Sequence record: OZ035739.1
Origin: Kayfunavirus AN24P4
Length of the DNA stretch: 39,836 nt
Reading direction: 5' to 3' (one strand)
Shown: positions 3,903 to 39,836 of the stretch, one piece after another
How the letters are laid out: every line of letters starts with the position of its first letter
How positions within the stretch are numbered: position 1 is the stretch's first letter
Made by a program: the position numbers and the translations under genes
Notes under the pieces: generated by a model
What the model was told of the DNA's origin: nothing
The model's input: only the letters and a program-made list of their open reading frames with translations
Database searches by the model: none

Positions 3903-3985
3903 GTCACTACCTACAGTCTAACTACCTACAGTCATCGATCATCGGTAATGCCGCTACCTACAGTCAGAGACCTACGGTTAATAGA
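3903..3985 (+). repeat. short direct repeats (CTACCTACAGTC family), left-end side
   Basis: cactacctacagtctaactacctacagtcatcg...gctacctacagtcagagacctacgg; three to four copies of a CTACCTACAG core. Confidence 0.5.
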
Positions 3986-6346: not shown

Positions 6347-9028
6347 ATGAGCGTCATCTCTATTGACAAACACGACTTCTCTGATGTGTCTAACGCCATT
6401 GAGCCGTTTAACCTGCTGGCTGACCACTACGGGCAAGACCTTGCAGTCAAACAGCTTCAGCTTGAGCACGAGGCATACACTGAAGGCGAGCGACGTTTCA
6501 TCAAAAACCTTGAGCGACAGACTGAGCGCGGGGAACTGGCAGACAATCAGGTAGCCCAGCCTTTGATGCAGACTCTGGTCCCTAAGATTGCGCAAGCCGT
6601 CAGGGAGTGGCATGAAGGTCCAGACGGGAAGCTGTCAACCTCTCGTCCGAGCGTATCGTTCACCATGTTAAGCACTGAAGAGAAGGCCGTCAAGGACCGC
6701 TCTCTTCGCATCTCCTGCGAGTCTGCTGCGGTTATCATACTGAAGGTCATCCTCTCCAAGCTGGTCAAGCCTGAAGGTATACCGATTACACCGATGGCCT
6801 CCGCGATAGGTCGCACACTTGAGGATGAAATCCGATTCGGTCGCATTCGTGACAAGGAGAAGGAGCACTTCAAGAAGGCGATAGCTGATAACCTGAACAA
6901 GAGAGCCGGGGCATCATACAAGAAAGCCTACATGCAAGCGGTCGAGACATCCATGCTGGAGCAAGGCCAACTAGAAGATGCGTGGGGAACTTGGAGTCCG
7001 ACCGAGGCTGTCCACGTTGGAATCAAGATGCTGGAGATTGTCATCCAGTCAACACAACTGGTCGAGCTTAAGCGTTACGGTGCTGGCAATGCAGCGGCTG
7101 ACGTTGAGATGGTCCACCTGTCAGACTTCTGGGTCAAGAAGATGGCACAACGCGGCTTCAGCCTTGCGGGTATCGCTCCAGTCTACCAACCTTGCGTAGT
7201 TCCACCTAAGCCGTGGACTGGTGTCGTAGGCGGGGGGTACTGGGCCAAAGGTCGCAGACCATTACCACTGATTCGCTTAGGGTCTAAGTCTGCGGTGGAA
7301 CGTTACGAAGACGTGTATATGCCTGAAGTCTATGACGCTGTTAACATCATCCAGAATACACCTTGGAAAGTGAACAAGAAGGTTCTGGACGTGGTGAACA
7401 TGGTCGAGAAGTTGAACAACACGCCTATTGATGACATCCCTCAGATGGAGCCACTGAAGCCTGAAGAATATGCGGGTGAGACTGAAGAGGAACTCAAGGC
7501 GTGGAAGAAAGCGGCTGCTGGTATCTATCGCCGCGAGAAGGCCAGACAGTCACGCAGGTTGTCGCTGAGCTTTATCGTTAACCAAGCGAACAAGTTCTCT
7601 CAGTTCAAGGCCATCTGGTTCCCGTATAACATGGACTGGCGCGGTCGCGTCTACGCTGTGCCGATGTTCAACCCTCAGGGTAACGACATGCAAAAGGGTC
7701 TCCTGACTCTGGCAGTCGGTAAGCCTATTGGTGCTGATGGTTTCAAATGGCTGAAGGTCCACGGGGCAAACTGTGCGGGTGTCGATAAAGTCACCTTCGA
7801 GGAGCGCATCAAGTGGGTGGAAGACAACCACGACAACATCATGGCTGCTGCTAAGGCACCGATGGATAGCATTGAGTGGTGGGGCAAGTTAGACTCTCCT
7901 TTCTGCTTCCTTGCGTTCTGCTTCGAGTATGCTGGCGTGATGCACCACGGATTGTCTTACTCCTGCTCGCTGCCGATAGCTTTCGATGGGTCCTGCTCTG
8001 GGATTCAGCACTTCAGCGCTATGCTTCGTGACCACATCGGTGGACATGCAGTAAACCTAACGCCATCCGGTAAGGTCCAAGACATCTACCGCATCGTGTC
8101 TGACCGCATTGAGGAGGAGCTTAAAGTCCTGCTGGTTAACGGCACGGATAACGAGATGGTAACTCACGAGGACAAGAAAACTGGTGAGATTACCGAGCGT
8201 CTCAAGCTGGGGACACGAGAGCTGGCCCGGCAGTGGCTGACTTACGGTATGTCACGCAAGGTTACTAAGCGCTCAGTCATGACTCTGGCCTATGGGTCGA
8301 AAGAGTACGGCTTTGCAGACCAAGTTTACGAGGACATCGTGATGCCAGCGATTGACTCAGGGTCTGGCGCTATGTTCACTGAACCAAGCCAAGCGTCTCG
8401 CTTCATGGCTAAGATGATTTGGGAAGCTGTGAGTGTGACCGTAGTTGCTGCAGTTGACGCGATGAAGTGGCTTCAAGGTGCTGCCAAGCTGCTGGCGGCT
8501 GAAGTGAAGGACAAGAAGACTGGAGAAATCCTGAAGCCTTGCCTTCCGGTACACTGGGTCACACCTGATGGGTTCCCGGTCTGGCAGGAATACCGCAAGA
8601 AGGATACCACTCGTCTGAACCTGATGTTCTTAGGGTCCTTCAACCTTCAGCCTACCGTCAACAAAGGCACGAAGAAGGAGTTGGATAAGCACAAGCAGGA
8701 GTCAGGAATTAGCCCGAACTTCGTCCACTCACAAGATGGTAGCCATCTCCGCAAGACTGTAGTCCACACTCACCGCAAGTATGGCGTGATGTCATTCGCA
8801 GTGATTCACGATAGCTTCGGGACCATCCCGGCTGACGCTGAGTATCTGTTCCGTGGTGTCCGTGAGACGATGGTCGAGACCTACCGCGATAACGATGTGC
8901 TGCTTGACTTCTACGAGCAGTTTGAATACCAACTTCATGAGAGCCAGCGCGACAAGTTGCCTGAGCTTCCGAAGAAAGGTAAACTGAATATTGAGGACAT
9001 TCTATCTTCAGACTTTGCATTCGCTTAA
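6347..9028 (+). CDS. single-subunit DNA-dependent RNA polymerase (T7 gp1-like)
   Basis: 893-aa ORF collinear with T7 RNAP over its whole length (FGRIRD, PWTG..GGGYWA, FPYNMDWRGRVYA, GIQHFSAMLRD, HDSFGT, C-terminal SDFAFA). Confidence 0.97.
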   Translation: MSVISIDKHDFSDVSNAIEPFNLLADHYGQDLAVKQLQLEHEAYTEGERRFIKNLERQTERGELADNQVAQPLMQTLVPKIAQAVREWHEGPDGKLSTSRPSVSFTMLSTEEKAVKDRSLRISCESAAVIILKVILSKLVKPEGIPITPMASAIGRTLEDEIRFGRIRDKEKEHFKKAIADNLNKRAGASYKKAYMQAVETSMLEQGQLEDAWGTWSPTEAVHVGIKMLEIVIQSTQLVELKRYGAGNAAADVEMVHLSDFWVKKMAQRGFSLAGIAPVYQPCVVPPKPWTGVVGGGYWAKGRRPLPLIRLGSKSAVERYEDVYMPEVYDAVNIIQNTPWKVNKKVLDVVNMVEKLNNTPIDDIPQMEPLKPEEYAGETEEELKAWKKAAAGIYRREKARQSRRLSLSFIVNQANKFSQFKAIWFPYNMDWRGRVYAVPMFNPQGNDMQKGLLTLAVGKPIGADGFKWLKVHGANCAGVDKVTFEERIKWVEDNHDNIMAAAKAPMDSIEWWGKLDSPFCFLAFCFEYAGVMHHGLSYSCSLPIAFDGSCSGIQHFSAMLRDHIGGHAVNLTPSGKVQDIYRIVSDRIEEELKVLLVNGTDNEMVTHEDKKTGEITERLKLGTRELARQWLTYGMSRKVTKRSVMTLAYGSKEYGFADQVYEDIVMPAIDSGSGAMFTEPSQASRFMAKMIWEAVSVTVVAAVDAMKWLQGAAKLLAAEVKDKKTGEILKPCLPVHWVTPDGFPVWQEYRKKDTTRLNLMFLGSFNLQPTVNKGTKKELDKHKQESGISPNFVHSQDGSHLRKTVVHTHRKYGVMSFAVIHDSFGTIPADAEYLFRGVRETMVETYRDNDVLLDFYEQFEYQLHESQRDKLPELPKKGKLNIEDILSSDFAFA

Positions 9029-9245: not shown

Positions 9246-9320
9246 CAGACCTACAGTTACTGGCCTTGTGGCTGGGAGCACTAGCAGTATTCATTTTAGT
9301 CCAACGCAGAAGAGGTTAAC

Positions 9321-9343
9321 CCTAAACTATCACTATAGGATTA
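9321..9343 (+). promoter_or_regulatory. phage RNAP promoter (phi1.1-like)
   Basis: cctaaactatcactataGGAtta; +1 about 9338. Confidence 0.75.
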
Positions 9344-9385
9344 GACTCAAGGTCATGACTCAAAGTCGTGGCCTTCATGATTAAC
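9341..9385 (+). promoter_or_regulatory. RNase III-type processing hairpin (R1.1-like), copy 2
   Basis: ttagactcaaggtcatgactcaaagtcgtggccttcatgattaac; same arms as copies at 297 and 16527. Confidence 0.5.
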
Positions 9386-9416
9386 CCTAAATAAACACTA
9401 CTGGAGATTTAACCGT

Positions 9417-16323: not shown

Positions 16324-16524
16324 GTGCGATTGGAAGTCACCATACGGAGGACACCATTAGTGTTTAAGAAACTTAAAGCTCGATACCATCGGTTCATGTA
16401 CAAATGGTGGAGCGATGAAGCAACCTGCCTGTCGAACATTCTGGGAGACCAGCGGTTCAACTCTGCGGCATGGAAGAAAGCTAACCGGAAGTTCATGTAT
16501 CACTTCTTGCGTACAGACTTCTAG
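16324..16524 (+). CDS. hypothetical small protein (66 aa), gene 4.3-4.7 position
   Basis: ORF between primase-helicase and DNA polymerase; basic; assignment by position only. Confidence 0.45.
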   Translation: MRLEVTIRRTPLVFKKLKARYHRFMYKWWSDEATCLSNILGDQRFNSAAWKKANRKFMYHFLRTDF

Positions 16525-18603: not shown

Positions 18604-19201
18604 TAACATCATGGTGCACATTAAATCTGGTGAACTCGGTGAACTCCTAATGGGACAATACCGAGCCAAGCCATAGGGAGGATGTATGAGAGGCAAGAAG
18701 TTAATTCTTGAGGCCACTGAGACTGGCTGCATAATCCCTACGTCACATAAATTGAATCAGGATGGATACTTCCGAAAGAGGACTAACGGTGTCCTTGAGA
18801 TGTATCATAGAACTGTATGGATTAAAGCTAATGGTCCAATACCTGAAGGTTTCGAAGTAGACCACAAGTGTCGGAATAGAGCTTGTTGCAACGTCGAACA
18901 TCTACAAGTATTAGACCGGGACTCACACTTAGTAAAGACCAACCAAGAGCGATACGCTGCTAGGAAGCTAGAAGCACGAGACTACTGGGTAGATACTGGG
19001 TGTACTGGAACGAAGTTAGCCGAAATATTCAATGTGTCGTTCTCAGCCGCCTGTGGGTGGATTAGGGAGTGGAAGGCGTAGAGACTATCCGAAAGGAGTA
19101 GGGCCGTGGGTGAGATTCCCACGTAACCCGAAGCGCCAGACAGTCACCTCAAAGACTGATGATATAGTCCGACACTTCCAGTAATGGGAGAATACAGAAA
19201 G
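18604..19201 (+). mobile_element. intervening sequence in the DNA polymerase gene, probably a self-splicing group I intron carrying an HNH endonuclease ORF
   Basis: About 598 nt between in-frame exon 1 end (...GTG CAT) and exon 2 start (GAT GAG...); last exon-1 base is T (U) and last intervening base is G, as at group I splice sites; contains an independent ORF with its own RBS; AT-rich. Confidence 0.7.
18686..19081 (+). CDS. HNH homing endonuclease (intron-encoded)
   Basis: 131-aa ORF with RBS gggagg; HNH-type motif (EVDHKCRNRACCNVEHLQ); lies entirely inside the intervening sequence in a different frame from the polymerase. Confidence 0.8.
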   Translation: MRGKKLILEATETGCIIPTSHKLNQDGYFRKRTNGVLEMYHRTVWIKANGPIPEGFEVDHKCRNRACCNVEHLQVLDRDSHLVKTNQERYAARKLEARDYWVDTGCTGTKLAEIFNVSFSAACGWIREWKA

Positions 19202-19357
19202 GATGAGTTACAGATTGCTTGTCGTACTCAAGAAATAGCAGAACGTACAGTCGAAATTGCTCAGCTTGCTATGCGTAAGGTGGGTGAGTTCTATAACTTT
19301 AAATGTGTCCTTGATACCGAAGGTAAGATTGGACCAACGTGGAAGGAGTGTCACTAA
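19202..19357 (+). CDS. DNA polymerase (T7 gp5-like), exon 2
   Basis: 51 codons DELQIACRTQEIAERTVEIAQLAMRKVGEFYNFKCVLDTEGKIGPTWKECH match the T7 gp5 C-terminus (DEIQVGCRTEEIAQ...LLDTEGKMGPNWAICH), in frame with exon 1 once the intervening sequence is removed. Confidence 0.85.
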   Translation, partial: DELQIACRTQEIAERTVEIAQLAMRKVGEFYNFKCVLDTEGKIGPTWKECH

Positions 19358-19647
19358 TGGCTATGACCAAACGTATGCGAGTTTCGTTCTCGCTGGGTGC
19401 TGTGTTGTCAACTGAAAACGTGGAGAACTTCAAGAAGACTCTCTGCGAGCTTAGCCGTAAGGTCCTCAACGGAGAGAAGACCACTGGTTTTGAGCGTAAG
19501 ATGGTAGAGGTTGGTGTGACTGAAGGTCTGGAAGCTGTAGTAGAATTGATCTTCAAGAAAGGTATCGTCGAGGGGCTGAAAGAAGACCTGAGCAGTTACG
19601 CTGACCAGCCAAGCTTTGGTAACTTCCGGGTGGAGTTCGAACGATGA
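19357..19647 (+). CDS. gp5.5-like protein (H-NS-binding protein family)
   Basis: Start MAMTKRMRVSF at ATG 19357 overlapping polymerase stop (TAATG); resembles T7 gp5.5 (MAMTKKFKVSF...). Confidence 0.8.
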   Translation: MAMTKRMRVSFSLGAVLSTENVENFKKTLCELSRKVLNGEKTTGFERKMVEVGVTEGLEAVVELIFKKGIVEGLKEDLSSYADQPSFGNFRVEFER

Positions 19648-26116: not shown

Positions 26117-26157
26117 AAACCCCTTGGGTGCCTTCGGGTGCTTGAGGGGTTTTTTGC
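26117..26157 (+). terminator. Tphi-like transcription terminator after the capsid gene
   Basis: aaaccccttgggtgccttcgggtgcttgaggggttttttg closely resembles T7 Tphi (aaccccttgggg...cttgaggggttttttg): GC-rich hairpin plus T6 run. Confidence 0.75.
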
Positions 26158-35800: not shown

Positions 35801-36737
35801 GTCTGACATCGTGGAGCATAGCCTGACTGGTAGTAAGCGTAAGTTCGATGACCGCTGGCTGAAGACCGCTGGTATATCTGACGAGCAGTGGAGTGGAATT
35901 AAGTCCCTAATCCGTGAGTCAGTGACTCGTGGGCCAGACGGGAAGTACACCATCAAGGATAAGAAGGCGTTCAGTCAGGACCCAAGGGCTATGGACCTGT
36001 GGCGTATGGGTGACACCATCGCTGACGAGACGTTACTCCGGCCTCATAAGCTGTCAAACATGGACGCCAAGGCTTATGGTCCTCTCGCTAAGACTGTCCT
36101 TCAGTTTAAGAACTTCGTCATCAAGTCTATCAATGGGAGAACCATGCGAACCTTCTATAACGCCACGAAGAACAACAGAGCGATTGACGCTGCACTGTCG
36201 ACCGTGATGTCTATGGGTCTGGCTGGTATCTACTACATGGCTCAGGCGCATGTCAAGGCTTATGCTATGCAGGATGGTCGAGACCGTGACTACCTTAAGC
36301 AAGCTCTGGACCCAACGATGATTGGCTATGCGGCCCTGTCCCGTAGTTCACATCTTGGTGGCCCACTTGGGGTAGCTAACATTCTGGGAGGTATCGCTGG
36401 ATATGAGGACACTAAGATGCTCCGTTCGTCTATCCTACCTCGTTCTCCTACAGAGAAGCCTGAGCGTGCCATCGCGTATGGTGCAGCTACAAGTGACCCT
36501 GTGATGAATGTTGTTGGTAACTTCTTGGAGCAGGTTCCAGCTTTCGGATATGCTGCTAACGTTGGCGCTTCGGCTTACAACTTGGCTGGCTACCTCAAGG
36601 CTGATACTCGTGTCAACGAGCGTGACTACATGACCGGGATGTATAATACGTTCCGTGAACTGGTTCCGAACGACCCCATTACCCAGAAGCTGCTGCTTGG
36701 AACGTTTGAGGAGCAAGGCATCCACATCAAGGACTAA
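32850..36737 (+). CDS. internal virion (core) protein D (T7 gp16-like) with divergent N-terminal domain
   Basis: 1295 aa; from about residue 200 collinear with T7 gp16 (TWFGF..A.EAE..NS.VG.A.RAG, GAGVDPL.YVP, RLEARETARN, LVRSPTGMQSGASGK, FPGSRFKGTYVPHVY, NYLLDA.RQG, YGAA...P..N..G); first ~130 aa lack the T7 transglycosylase signature. Confidence 0.93.
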   Translation: MATRGIRNNNPGNIRVSKDQWEGMTGDDGAFVTFDSPESGVRALGKNLLSYGRQGYDSIEKIINRWAPPNENDTKAYIDSVVAATGIPATQSLDLSDPDTLSSLAQAISFHETGSRYDPEVYQKGVARALNGISPKTPPVSANVFDALTEGLKAKPKVALGENLPTAAGLNIEGQAPEAPNESFGEMFYKATGETMQEQEDRSTWFGFGAATEAEVKNSMVGVAIRAGQTEDSLDVIGDVFNPTRWNNHKWSREELDQIRNAGVLPQYYGVITGGSPQNLTELINLALENQKLDQEKAKAGTGAQLAAGVIGAGVDPLTYVPIAGQVGKGGKLVNKMFTVAAQSGALAGASEIARTSVAGGDAHVAEAILGGALFGGGMTAIADGLGRALGRNTNEFAGPATRLEARETARNVDGQDLSRLPIQEGEQTFSHQGVKFADVPNEPGSVRLEDGSILIGENPLNPKTRQVFDEVIEPERAAAGVNLGGLTEIGLKLLRSENPEIRGVAADLVRSPTGMQSGASGKIGTTASDVFERLRSVDHRFYNDIDDAVTEALKDPYFQTAFWRDSGAFRQDIYQRVSMAIEDGSGNLKAELTPGELKVYDLLKNQFDAKREMMENPSMFGRQDAQSIFPGSRFKGTYVPHVYSKQMKELYTKELGSPEALQEVIKKSWLTSYASRPEVKKRVDEALLEADPTLTPEGLAAAVDKYANDKAYGISHTEQFERSSVMEENINGLVGLENNSFLEARNLFDSDMSIVLPNGQTFSVNNLREWDMDKIVPAYNRRVNGDIAIMAGTGKTTKEMKDLVETMMNKAGDDGKLKGEVSTLRDTLKILTGRARRDGADDAAFATVMRTMTDLSFFAKNAYMGVQNLTEIGGMLARGNVRALLHGVPMFRDLAFRNKKVGASEIKDLHNVIFGKELDDSIRPSKQDVIDRLRSYSDLSRGTATALGTAKYYTGELAVRSPFTKVLNGTTNYLLDAGRQGFLSDIVEHSLTGSKRKFDDRWLKTAGISDEQWSGIKSLIRESVTRGPDGKYTIKDKKAFSQDPRAMDLWRMGDTIADETLLRPHKLSNMDAKAYGPLAKTVLQFKNFVIKSINGRTMRTFYNATKNNRAIDAALSTVMSMGLAGIYYMAQAHVKAYAMQDGRDRDYLKQALDPTMIGYAALSRSSHLGGPLGVANILGGIAGYEDTKMLRSSILPRSPTEKPERAIAYGAATSDPVMNVVGNFLEQVPAFGYAANVGASAYNLAGYLKADTRVNERDYMTGMYNTFRELVPNDPITQKLLLGTFEEQGIHIKD

Positions 36738-36755
36738 ACTATCACTATAGGAAAC
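36733..36755 (+). promoter_or_regulatory. phage RNAP promoter (phi17-like)
   Basis: ggactaaactatcactataGGAaac; +1 about 36750. Confidence 0.75.
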
Positions 36756-36801: not shown

Positions 36802-39333
36802 ATGTCCACGATTACACAATTCCCTTCAGGAAACACTCAGTACAGGATTGAGTTCGACTACCTAGCCAGAACGTTTGTTGTTGTTACGCTGGTGAATAGC
36901 TCTAACCCTACCCTGAACCGTGTACTGGAAGTTGGTCGAGATTACCGATTCCTTAATCCAACGATGATTGAGATGTTGGTTGACCAATCAGGTTTCGACA
37001 TAGTTCGTATTCACCGTCAGACTGGAACTGACTTAGTGGTAGATTTCAGGAATGGCTCAGTGTTGACAGCTAGTGACCTGACCAATTCAGAGCTTCAGGC
37101 TATCCATATTGCAGAAGAAGGTCGAGACCAAACGGTTGACTTAGCGAAGGAATATGCCGATGCTGCTGGTAGCTCTGCTGGCAACGCTAAGGATAGCGAG
37201 GACGAAGCACGCCGAATCGCTGCGAGTATCAGGGAAGCTGGTCTAATTGGCTATATTACCCGTCGCTCCTTCGAGAAAGGCTACAACGTTACAACATGGA
37301 GCGAGGTCCTGCTATGGGAAGAGGATGGTGATTATTACCGCTGGGATGGTATGCTTCCAAAGAACGTTCCTGCTGGTTCAACTCCTGAAACTTCCGGTGG
37401 GATTGGATTAGGTGCGTGGGTTAGTGTTGGTGATGCTGCTTTAAGAAGTCAGATTTCAAACCCTGAAGGGGCAATACTCTACCCGGAATTGCAGATGGCA
37501 AGATGGCGTGATGAGGGTGATGTTCGAGGCTGGGGTGCTAAAGGGGATGGTGTAACAGATAGTACGGAGAATATAGCTGCTTCACTAAATTCTCAAAAAG
37601 CTGTCGTAGCATCAGAAGGTGTATTCTCTAGTTCTGGTATTAATAGTAATTACTGTAACTTAGACGGTAGAGGTAGTGGGGTGCTAAGTCACCGTTCCAG
37701 TACAGGTAACTACTTAGTATTTAACAATCCACGTACAGGTCGCTTAAGTAATATTACGGTAGAAAGTAATAAGGCGACTGATACAACTAAGGGACAGCAG
37801 GTATCTCTTGCGGGTGGAAGTGATGTTACTGTAAGTGACGTTAACTTCTCAAACGTTAAAGGTACTGGTTTCAGTTTAATCGCATACCCTAATGATGCGA
37901 CACCTGATGGACTTATGATTAAAGGCATTCGAGGTAGCTATTCCGGCTATGCTACTAATAAGGCAGCCGGATGCGTACTTGCTGACTCCTCAGTTAACTC
38001 CCTCATAGATAACGTCATTGCTAAGAACTACCCCCAGTTCGGAGCAGTAGAGTTGAAAGGTACAGCCCGTTACAACATAGTCAGTAATGTTATAGGGGCA
38101 GATTGCCAGCATGTAACTTACAACGGCACTGAAGGGCCAATAGCTCCTTCTAATAACCTTATAAAGGGGGTGATGGCTAATAACCCTAAGTATGCAGCGG
38201 TTGTTGCAGGCAAAGGAAATACGAACTTAATCTCAGACGTGCTCGTAGATTACTCAACTTCTGATGCTAGGCAGGCTCATGGTGTTACCGTAGAAGGGTC
38301 TGATAACGTCATAAATAATGTGCTTATGTCAGGATGTGATGGTACTAACTCTTTAGGACAAGGGCAGACTGCTACAATTGCACGCTTTATAGGTACAGCT
38401 AATAACAACTATGCGTCTGTATTTCCTAGCTACAGTGCTACAGGTGTTATTACTTTCGAATCCGGCTCTACCCGTAACTTCGTAGAGGTAAAGCACCCTG
38501 GCAGGAGAAACGACCTTCTCAGTTCTGCTAGTACTATTGACGGTGCAGCTACTATTGACGGCACTAGTAATAGTAACGTAGTGCACGCACCTGCCTTAGG
38601 GCAGTACATAGGTAGTATGTCAGGTAGGTTCGAATGGCGGATTAAGTCCATGTCACTCCCTTCAGGCGTTCTTACTTCTGCTGATAAGTACAGAATGCTG
38701 GGGGATGGTGCTGTGTCATTAGCTGTAGGTGGTGGTGCATCTTCTCAAGTTCGACTATTTACTTCTGATGGTATTTATCGGACAGTATCCCTCACCAACG
38801 GCAACGTGCGTCTTCCTACCAGTAGCACAGGTTATTTGCAGTTAGGTTCTGATGCAATGACCCCAGATAGTACTAATACATACGCATTAGGTTCCGCAAG
38901 TAGAGCATGGTCTGGCGGTTTTACTCAATCAGCATTCACTGTTGTCTCAGATGCTAGGGATAAAACAGAGCCTCTTAATATCTCAGATGCTTTACTGGAT
39001 GCTTGGTCTGAAGTTGACTTTGTGCAGTTTCAGTACTTGGACCGAATTGAGGAGAAGGGTGCAGACTCAGCTAGATGGCACTTCGGCATCATCGCTCAGC
39101 GAGCTAAGGAGGCCTTCGAACGTCACGGTATAGATGCACATCGCTATGGCTTCCTGTGCTTCGACAGTTGGGATGATGTATACGAGGAAGATGCCAATGG
39201 CTCTCGTAAACTGATTACACCAGCAGGTTCCCGCTACGGTATTCGTTACGAGGAAGTACTGATATTAGAGGCTGCGTTGATGCGGCGTACTATTAAGCGT
39301 ATGCAGGAAGCATTAGCTGTTATGTCTAAGTGA
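36802..39333 (+). CDS. tail fiber / tailspike (gp17 position): T7-type N-terminal adaptor, beta-helix depolymerase-like central domain, C-terminal autoproteolytic chaperone domain
   Basis: 843 aa; first ~150 aa resemble T7 gp17 N-terminus (FDYLAR.FVVVTL, DYRF, D.VVDF.NGSVL.ASDL...Q..H.AEE.RD); central region has repetitive NxxIxxN/V beta-helix-like pattern and AT-rich codon usage; C-terminus has SDARDK motif plus conserved region typical of endosialidase-type intramolecular chaperone domains. Confidence 0.93.
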   Translation: MSTITQFPSGNTQYRIEFDYLARTFVVVTLVNSSNPTLNRVLEVGRDYRFLNPTMIEMLVDQSGFDIVRIHRQTGTDLVVDFRNGSVLTASDLTNSELQAIHIAEEGRDQTVDLAKEYADAAGSSAGNAKDSEDEARRIAASIREAGLIGYITRRSFEKGYNVTTWSEVLLWEEDGDYYRWDGMLPKNVPAGSTPETSGGIGLGAWVSVGDAALRSQISNPEGAILYPELQMARWRDEGDVRGWGAKGDGVTDSTENIAASLNSQKAVVASEGVFSSSGINSNYCNLDGRGSGVLSHRSSTGNYLVFNNPRTGRLSNITVESNKATDTTKGQQVSLAGGSDVTVSDVNFSNVKGTGFSLIAYPNDATPDGLMIKGIRGSYSGYATNKAAGCVLADSSVNSLIDNVIAKNYPQFGAVELKGTARYNIVSNVIGADCQHVTYNGTEGPIAPSNNLIKGVMANNPKYAAVVAGKGNTNLISDVLVDYSTSDARQAHGVTVEGSDNVINNVLMSGCDGTNSLGQGQTATIARFIGTANNNYASVFPSYSATGVITFESGSTRNFVEVKHPGRRNDLLSSASTIDGAATIDGTSNSNVVHAPALGQYIGSMSGRFEWRIKSMSLPSGVLTSADKYRMLGDGAVSLAVGGGASSQVRLFTSDGIYRTVSLTNGNVRLPTSSTGYLQLGSDAMTPDSTNTYALGSASRAWSGGFTQSAFTVVSDARDKTEPLNISDALLDAWSEVDFVQFQYLDRIEEKGADSARWHFGIIAQRAKEAFERHGIDAHRYGFLCFDSWDDVYEEDANGSRKLITPAGSRYGIRYEEVLILEAALMRRTIKRMQEALAVMSK
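38947..39333 (+). other. C-terminal intramolecular chaperone / self-cleaving domain of the tailspike (peptidase S74-like)
   Basis: Begins at Ser of VVS-DARDK (predicted cleavage between S and D); about 128 aa; cleavage motif matches the S-D-x-x-x-K site of endosialidase-type tailspikes as I recall it. Confidence 0.6.
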
Positions 39334-39557
39334 GTAATACTGGTACGGTATTTTCGCACAATGAAATCGTTGAACACACTGACGAGGAGGGTAATGTCAC
39401 TACTACGGAAGGACCTGTATACACCGAGGTGGTTATTCACGAAGAGGGTGAGGAGTGGGGTGTTCGGCCTGACGGAATTTTCTTTGCTGAAGCCGCTTAT
39501 CAGAGAAGAAAACTGGAAAGAATCGAAGCCAGACTTTCTGCTCTTGAACAGAAGTAA
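39330..39557 (+). CDS. hypothetical acidic small protein (75 aa) between tailspike and holin genes
   Basis: GTG start overlapping tailspike stop (GTGA); acidic N-terminal half (EHTDEEGNVTTTEGPVYTEVVIHEEGEEWG) and C-terminal coiled-coil-like RRKLERIEARLSALEQK; no T7 counterpart at this position. Confidence 0.5.
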   Translation: MSNTGTVFSHNEIVEHTDEEGNVTTTEGPVYTEVVIHEEGEEWGVRPDGIFFAEAAYQRRKLERIEARLSALEQK

Positions 39558-39587
39558 TAAACAAAACCATTTTGCCATTAAGTTGGT

Positions 39588-39598
39588 GGGGGGGGGGG
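39588..39598 (+). repeat. homopolymeric G11 tract in the intergenic region upstream of the holin gene
   Basis: ttggtgggggggggggtagag: 11 consecutive G read directly from the sequence; only long homopolymer in the window. Confidence 0.9.
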
Positions 39599-39674
39599 TA
39601 GAGACTAACTACACGCTAACCAACGTATGTAACAACTTTGGGTCACGGACGACCCGCTTTAAACTGGAGGTTTT

Positions 39675-39836
39675 ATGATTGAGTTAGACTTCAAGAATGA
39701 GGTCCTTAAAGCCTCTCCTATCGTCGGGACCGCTGCGGCTGATGGTGCCAGTCGGTTCTTCTTCGGACTTACACTGAACGAATGGTTCTACGTTGCAGCT
39801 ATCGCGTACACCGTTGTCCAGATTGGTGTTCTAGTC
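39675..39836 (+). CDS. holin (T7 gp17.5-like), 3'-truncated by window end
   Basis: ATG 39675 after ggagg; MIELDFKNEVLKASPIVGTAAADGASRFFFGLTLNEWFYVAAIAYTVVQIG closely matches T7 gp17.5 (M.SLDFNNELIKAAPIVGTG.AD.SARLFFGLSLNEWFYVAAIAYTVVQIG). Confidence 0.8.
   Translation, partial: MIELDFKNEVLKASPIVGTAAADGASRFFFGLTLNEWFYVAAIAYTVVQIGVLV

Follow-up and report, generated by a model that had tools for sequence, protein, structure and literature searches.

The DNA analysed here (the window) is a stretch of 39,836 bases which BLAST assigns to a Kayfunavirus, a K1F-like relative of T7. The closest record was AN17P1 (OZ035755.1), with 97.6% identity across the structural half, and the next was SHAK7854 (96.3%). 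Every gene and promoter of the window is on the + strand, and the core genes are all intact, none of them being frameshifted. The phage promoter CTAAACTATCACTATAGGR is found in 11-12 copies, one of which (36728-36752) is located upstream of the tailspike gene. The window represents the genome as a rotated circle, with the holin gene split over the two ends, and the same rotation has been used in several OZ0357xx/OZ0358xx Kayfunavirus records. The product of this gene is annotated in relatives as class II holin or gp17.5, and its stop codon overlaps the ATG of gene 18 at base 30. The features of the region extending from the tailspike to the holin are listed below.

36802..39333, + strand: tailspike gene, 843 aa (Pfam PF03906, PF18668 and PF13884).
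39330..39557, + strand: 75-aa ORF, 3'-end relic of an endosialidase gene (tail of the C-terminal chaperone domain), as judged by protein and DNA identity to K1F.
39558..39587, + strand: 3' flank travelling with the endosialidase cassette (TAAACAAAACCATTTTGCCATTAAGTTGGT), common to the N4-like phage UE-S5a up to GGTGGAGGGG.
39585..39609, + strand: G-rich junction motif GGT-G11-TAGAGACTAAC, defined by alignments.
39588..39598, + strand: G11 homopolymer, read directly; the homologous site is variable among relatives.
39610..39674, + strand: conserved backbone leader of the holin gene, defined by invariant alignment columns.
39675..39836 and on into bases 1-33, + strand: class II holin gene (17.5), of which the 5' part lies at this end; 64 aa in total by translation across the circular junction.

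Direct reading of the assembled sequence confirmed the run of 11 G at 39588..39598, in the context ...TAATAAACAAAACCATTTTGCCATTAAGTT GGT GGGGGGGGGGG TAGAGACTAAC... (immediately, AAGTT GGT G11 TAGAGACTAAC). It is the only homopolymer of more than 6 bases in the window, the runners-up being G6 at 7232 and T6 at 26150. Under an independent-base model, 0.015 G runs of at least 11 are expected in the window (0.018 if G or C is counted) and a first-order Markov model gives 0.008. With an expectation of just 0.008-0.018, the run is far beyond chance. As the earlier note had placed it, the tract lies between the 75-aa ORF and the ribosome binding site of the holin gene: it is 3' of the double stop TAATAA (39555..39560) which closes the ORF, 68 nt before the GGAGG sequence (39666..39670) and 77 nt from the ATG of the holin gene, the position of which has been corrected from 39676 to 39675. 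The same note held that such long homopolymers are rare in T7-like genomes, and two lines of evidence back this statement. The Kayfunavirus DNA sampled, about 170 kb, has G or C runs of at least 7 at the G11 site alone, and in the other long Kayfunavirus loci runs of at least 7 of any base occurred only at the homologous site, besides one T7 in the record SHAK7854, which is flagged UNVERIFIED. In a published survey, Kayfunavirus has 0.02-0.07 runs of at least 6 per kb, which places it in the bottom three genera (PMC12633550). With its 11 residues, the tract exceeds the 6-7 nt from which a simple sequence repeat is able to slip.

The tailspike gene encodes a T7-tail N-terminal adaptor and, at its C-terminus, its own Peptidase_S74 chaperone (Pfam). 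The 75-aa ORF that follows gave no match in a Pfam search, and its residues 4-75 share 97% identity with the 72 C-terminal residues of the K1F gp17 endosialidase. At the DNA level, the homology to K1F begins at 39344, directly after the tailspike stop codon. Judged on these identities, the ORF is an endosialidase leftover and not an independent gene, probably a non-functional remnant of tailspike replacement, the 843-aa tailspike being the cassette that displaced the endosialidase. Part of this ORF is annotated as 'tail fiber protein' in MZ234022.

The fate of the relic in related phages revealed several lesions. It is interrupted by an in-frame stop codon in AN17P1 and by a frameshift in 101120B1-2, and 173 nt (39344..39516, ACTGG-flanked) have been deleted in SHAK7854 and 22664UKE3-2. 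In ZG49, an ACAC-flanked deletion of 237 nt (39378..39614) has removed most of the relic and the entire G tract, and the same type of deletion is apparently present in PDP21P1, EcoIv10b_Midid and IME177, as indicated by two-piece BLAST matches. These four phages have the same tailspike as the window and an intact holin leader. In Vec13, a deletion has occurred between two GTGGGGT repeats, one within the coding part of the relic and the other in the flank motif. The relic is thus being erased in relatives by three independent microhomology-flanked deletions (ACAC, ACTGG and GTGGGGT). Since several independent lesions are carried by cultured, plaque-forming phages, the 39334-39614 segment should be under little or no selection. 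The ZG49 deletion shows that the G tract is not required; a quantitative effect is compatible with it.

Mosaicism at tail-fibre and tailspike cassettes is a known feature of T7-like phages. According to a review on the architecture of depolymerase receptor-binding proteins, exchangeable cassettes lie between a conserved region for the N-terminal adaptor (5') and conserved backbone (3') (PMC6872550). The homology breakpoints around the tract were located with a 201-nt query spanning it. In Kayfunaviruses with unrelated tailspikes, homology to the window starts only at 39584-39594; SEA1f, SP7, ZCEC02, CLB_P1, ST31 and L028 match from GGTTGTGGAGGTAGAGGCTAAC on only, their backbone starting with GGTTGTGGAGGTAGAGGCTAACTACACGC... 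On the other side, the match with N4-like and other non-Kayfunavirus K1 phages possessing the endosialidase cassette (UE-S5a etc.) ends at about 39600, and the cassette flank terminates with ...AAGTTGGTGGGGTAGA in K1F and ...AAGTTGGTGGAGGGGTGGA in UE-S5a. The breakpoints of independent lineages therefore coincide at the tract (starts at 39584-39594, ends at about 39600), and the relic of the displaced module, 72 codons of endosialidase, is adjacent to it.

Each of the two partners that meet here has a short G-rich motif at its edge: in the cassette it is GGTGGGG-TAGA, in the backbone GTGGAGG-TAGAG. K1F has the two in tandem, GGTGGGGTAGATGTTAGAAGGTT then GTGGAGGTAGAGGCTAAC. The pair GGT-G4/5-TAGATGTTAGAAGGTT followed by GTGGAGG-TAGAGGC is common to K1F, Pipis and 01KA, and SHAK7854 also has both motifs. 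A single collapsed copy is found in the window, AN17P1, 101120B1-2, Esher6 and ERZ809152.200. The locus thus resembles the cassette boundaries of T7-like phages in that the breakpoints of many phages meet at a short motif, of which duplicated and collapsed copies exist, and in that a relic of the previous cassette is present; it differs from them by the growth of a homopolymer within the junction motif, in one sub-lineage. As far as the sequences of the Vec13 deletion tell, the junction motif would act as microhomology.

About 25 alleles of the site were read among more than 170 matching records. The main ones are the following.

Window: GGT-G11-TAGAGAC.
AN17P1: GGTGT-G7-TAGAGAC.
SHAK7854, second copy: GT-G9-TAGAGAC.
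101120B1-2: GGT-G4-TAGAGAC.
Esher6: G4.
Metagenome contig ERZ809152.200: G3.
01KA: G5.
Mt1B1_P3, Esher2 and Zappy: GTGGAGG.

In most relatives the site is GTGGAGG or GGTGGGG. The long runs are confined to the sub-lineage marked by TAGAGAC, in which G4, G7, G9 and G11 occur, and G3-G5 are found at the same motif in other relatives. The slip-prone and variable site that had been expected from the window is therefore borne out by the comparison between relatives: G3, G4, G5, G7, G9 and G11 all exist, and the length is not the same in all of them. Five sisters of 101120B1-2 (MZ234023 and MZ234044-47) gave matches to the 201-nt query equal to its own in length and identity. Aligned over the whole genome, the window and AN17P1 differ by 28 indel events, mostly in two replaced patches; the 19.8-kb collinear structural half contained just 3, one of which is the G tract. 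Short A, C and T runs immediately 5' of the tract (AAACAAAACC, CCATTTTGCC) show 1-nt differences among relatives as well, as expected under relaxed constraint. Pattern searches added no further long allele. A variable-gap pattern gave 0 matches in IMG/VR; an allele-specific pattern gave 0 metagenome matches and 1 viral match (PE3-1), devoid of a long G run; and a pattern derived from the invariant leader matched 3 metagenome, 7 viral and 0 bacterial genome contigs, with no long G run in any of them. Part of the length polymorphism between relatives could be technical, since SHAK7854, the source of the G9 allele, is UNVERIFIED and one of its other runs is longer by a T.

Downstream of the tract, the holin leader contains a hairpin, GGGTC-ACGGAC-GACCC (39640-39655), and the GGAGG ribosome binding site (39666-39670). 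It is invariant from about 39637 in the sampled relatives. The G tract is outside this invariant part, and the ZG49-type deletion, which ends at 39614, leaves the leader untouched. The 39637-39674 segment is invariant even in Kayfunaviruses with unrelated tailspikes and is more conserved than the flanking coding DNA. It had no match in Rfam and may serve the holin gene as an element for translation or for RNA processing.

The region of the tract was scanned for known signals. The best score for a phage promoter in 39540-39680 was -1.0, versus 29.8-35.8 for the 11 real promoters of the window, from which the position weight matrix (23-nt scoring window) had been built. No sigma-70 promoter and no intrinsic terminator were detected at the tract, Rfam gave no match with E up to 10, and the RNA fold was not significant (z = +0.78). 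A weak hairpin rich in G.U pairs can be drawn, with ATTTTGCCA (39569-39577) as 5' arm, a loop at 39578-39583 and a 3' arm extending from 39584 into the G tract; since five of its pairs are G.U and no U run follows, it lacks the GC-rich stem and the T/U run of a terminator. Nor does the tract have the four G3+ runs with short loops of a canonical G-quadruplex. The failure to find a recognisable signal does not prove the lack of a function.

Three explanations other than a neutral slippage hotspot have been weighed. According to one of them, the tract lies inside a real gene, either a 105-aa frame or a small ORF preceding the holin and coupled to it, and its length toggles expression. The 105-aa frame runs in the window from 39361 through the tract to a TGA overlapping the holin ATG (39678), and in SP7 a 39-aa hypothetical protein is annotated in the equivalent leader frame. 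The 105-aa frame is, however, open in the window only: it stops just past the tract in AN17P1, 101120B1-2, K1F and Mt1B1_P3, and its upstream part is the +1 frame of the endosialidase relic. The small leader frame, which ends in an ATGA overlap with the holin, is broken among relatives by 1-nt indels (GTATGTAAC, GTATGGTAAC, CATAAGGTAAC), and Pfam gave no match. Moreover, the frame of the holin itself is closed by a TAA at 39660, 15 nt upstream of its ATG, so that no tract length can extend the protein. The earlier remark that length changes would alter the frame open downstream is formally true, as an open frame does cross the tract, but it has no biological weight, this frame not being conserved and the holin frame being closed. 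A coding switch is accordingly given a probability close to nil. A second explanation concerns regulation: the tract would be a hypermutable intergenic site, the length of which tunes either read-through by the phage RNA polymerase or the late mRNA that reaches the holin, terminase and other downstream genes (its stability or its translation), by R-loop or G-quadruplex formation or by transcriptional slippage. The G-rich strand is indeed the non-template strand for all late transcription, an orientation reported to impede T7 RNA polymerase (Belotserkovskii et al., PMC3561996, PMC5499740), and contingency loci have recently been described in phages (PMC12633550). A G4-aware folding model with generous energies gives a two-tetrad quadruplex from G8 upwards (G8-G14), but a three-tetrad quadruplex would take G15; the quadruplex would therefore be a formal possibility of the model, without comparative support. 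The templates of Belotserkovskii et al. share with the window a G run on the non-template strand and a polymerase of the same type, yet on intact DNA, without a nick, the effect of a G16 insert is negligible, with 0.6% blockage (PMC3561996). The blockage by G11 should be smaller still, and the run of the window is in addition about 2.9 kb downstream of its nearest promoter (36728). For the same reason (less than 1% blockage of T7 RNA polymerase by G16 in the literature), a transcription attenuator was considered and rejected. Comparison with relatives also argues against regulation: most Kayfunaviruses have no run at this site, ZG49-type phages have lost the site altogether, the tract is not part of the invariant leader, 77 nt separating it from the holin ATG downstream, and there is no promoter of which it could change the spacing. 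We consider this explanation improbable. The influence on holin or late-gene expression that the earlier note had envisaged thus finds no support in the promoter, terminator, Rfam and folding searches, and the ZG49-type deletion leaves the holin leader unchanged.

The third explanation is a sequencing or assembly artefact, by which a real run would have a miscalled length, or the run itself would have been made by a consensus error (homopolymer miscall or two-colour poly-G). Runs of at least 9 are the hardest sites on most platforms, relatives from different laboratories are reported with different lengths, and SHAK7854, besides being UNVERIFIED, exceeds its relatives by one base in another homopolymer. 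Against a wholesale artefact, both flanks of the tract are collinear, base for base, with those of relatives, the run replaces a G-rich motif and does not interrupt unrelated sequence, and AN17P1 displays a substitution (GGTGTG7) in addition to the change in length, which is not compatible with a pure length miscall. Long runs are found in two independent relatives at this same site and nowhere else. None of the core genes is frameshifted, so the assembly gives no hint of being prone to homopolymer errors. The physical ends of the genome are about 3.7 kb downstream (K1F coordinates), and the tract is therefore not at a run-off poly-G terminus; a two-colour poly-G artefact, expected at a read or contig end and without homologous counterpart, does not correspond to an assembled tract having collinear flanks and G7 and G9 counterparts. 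On these sequence comparisons a wholesale artefact is unlikely, and of the suspicion raised by the earlier note mainly the part bearing on the exact length stands, as the 11 may be miscalled. Taken as a whole, miscalled length included, the artefact explanation has in our estimation a low but real probability.

Poly-G tracts in the receptor-binding genes of Campylobacter phages are contingency loci. The tract of the window has several characters of such phage loci: it is a slippable mononucleotide run, its length varies among close relatives and it adjoins a host-range module, the tailspike. Phage contingency loci are, however, within reading frames, where an indel turns a protein on or off with a demonstrated phenotype, whereas the G11 tract is intergenic, is associated with neither a conserved frame nor a promoter, neither lying in a coding frame nor between promoter elements, and belongs to DNA that relatives have deleted. 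In a recent preprint on homopolymer contingency loci of T2 and T4, a few intergenic simple sequence repeats are mentioned and no function is assigned to them (Gomez, Barrick and Waters 2025, PMC12633550). A true intergenic contingency locus, with high-frequency length change within populations which would tune read-through or late mRNA stability and generate heterogeneity in lysis timing, seems very improbable here. Should late transcription really be modulated by the tract, T7-like phages would have their first intergenic contingency locus; the present evidence is against such a modulation.

A true terminator, with a hairpin and a T run, is found at the equivalent position in CLB_P1, IME207, ST31 and ERZ506143.157. 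Like these terminators, the tract is immediately 3' of the stop codons of a chaperone domain, and the GGTGGGG sequence resembles the 3' arm of their hairpins (CCCCGCTTCGGTGGGG). Unlike them, the window has neither a GC-rich 5' arm nor a T run, and the terminator scan was negative; the site is at most a degenerate relic of a terminator of this type. An origin of GGTGGGG as the 3' arm of a terminator hairpin kept by other cassettes is suggestive only, the alignment being short and gappy.

The G11 tract is thus probably a neutral and functionless homopolymer hotspot, expanded by slippage at a cassette/backbone junction, in decaying and dispensable DNA. From the alleles, the breakpoints and the losses in relatives, we infer slippage as the mechanism, the neutrality of the tract and the following order of events. 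A cassette exchange would have brought together two G-rich motifs, GGTGGGG and GTGGAGG. An uninterrupted G run would then have arisen by collapse of the two copies, by point changes removing the interrupting A or T, or by both. In the TAGAGAC sub-lineage, the run would have gained and lost G residues by replication slippage, giving G4, G7, G9 and G11, the last being the longest state sampled; its length would be free to change because the DNA is non-functional. The whole 39334-39614 segment would be a leftover of the tailspike swap, eroding by point mutations and microhomology deletions. The tract would be transcribed as part of the late read-through RNA from gene 17 to gene 17.5 without having a role in the expression of the holin or of the late genes. 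A harmless hotspot is likelier than a switch of a lysis gene since the tract is located in a leftover of the tailspike swap which is deleted in viable relatives.

For users of these genomes, the G tract would be the one spot, in DNA poor in homopolymers, where assemblies will disagree, and the differences there should not be taken for biology. No gene should be annotated for the 75-aa ORF, a pseudogene fragment, nor for the frames that cross the tract. Beyond annotation and quality control of assemblies, the tract is of low interest. The locus is nevertheless a small and clear case in which a tailspike swap leaves relics that are erased by microhomology deletions, and in which a junction motif can seed a homopolymer.

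Some additional observations were made on the same records. Most of what separates the window from AN17P1, in indels and in divergence, is concentrated in two patches, at 362-1170, around gene 18.5, and at 18605-19602, in a mid-genome region of small genes; they look like replaced mosaic modules. Near position 3905 of the window, a 15-nt unit (ACTACCTACAGTCTA) has two additional copies in AN17P1, a variation in the copy number of a tandem repeat; this region is expected near the physical genome end and the early region. The annotation of SHAK7854 (OR594182.1) is out of register with its sequence: the holin is annotated at 36129 and its sequence is found near 38700, where the terminase large subunit is annotated. 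Finally, a 49-nt direct repeat (TTAGACTCAAGGTCAT...GGCCTT.ATG.TTAAC), the copies of which are 82% identical, is present at 297-345 and 9341-9389. The copies follow, respectively, gene 18 and the promoter at 9316, a partial third copy lies at 16522, and these repeats may be candidate processing hairpins of the RNase III type.
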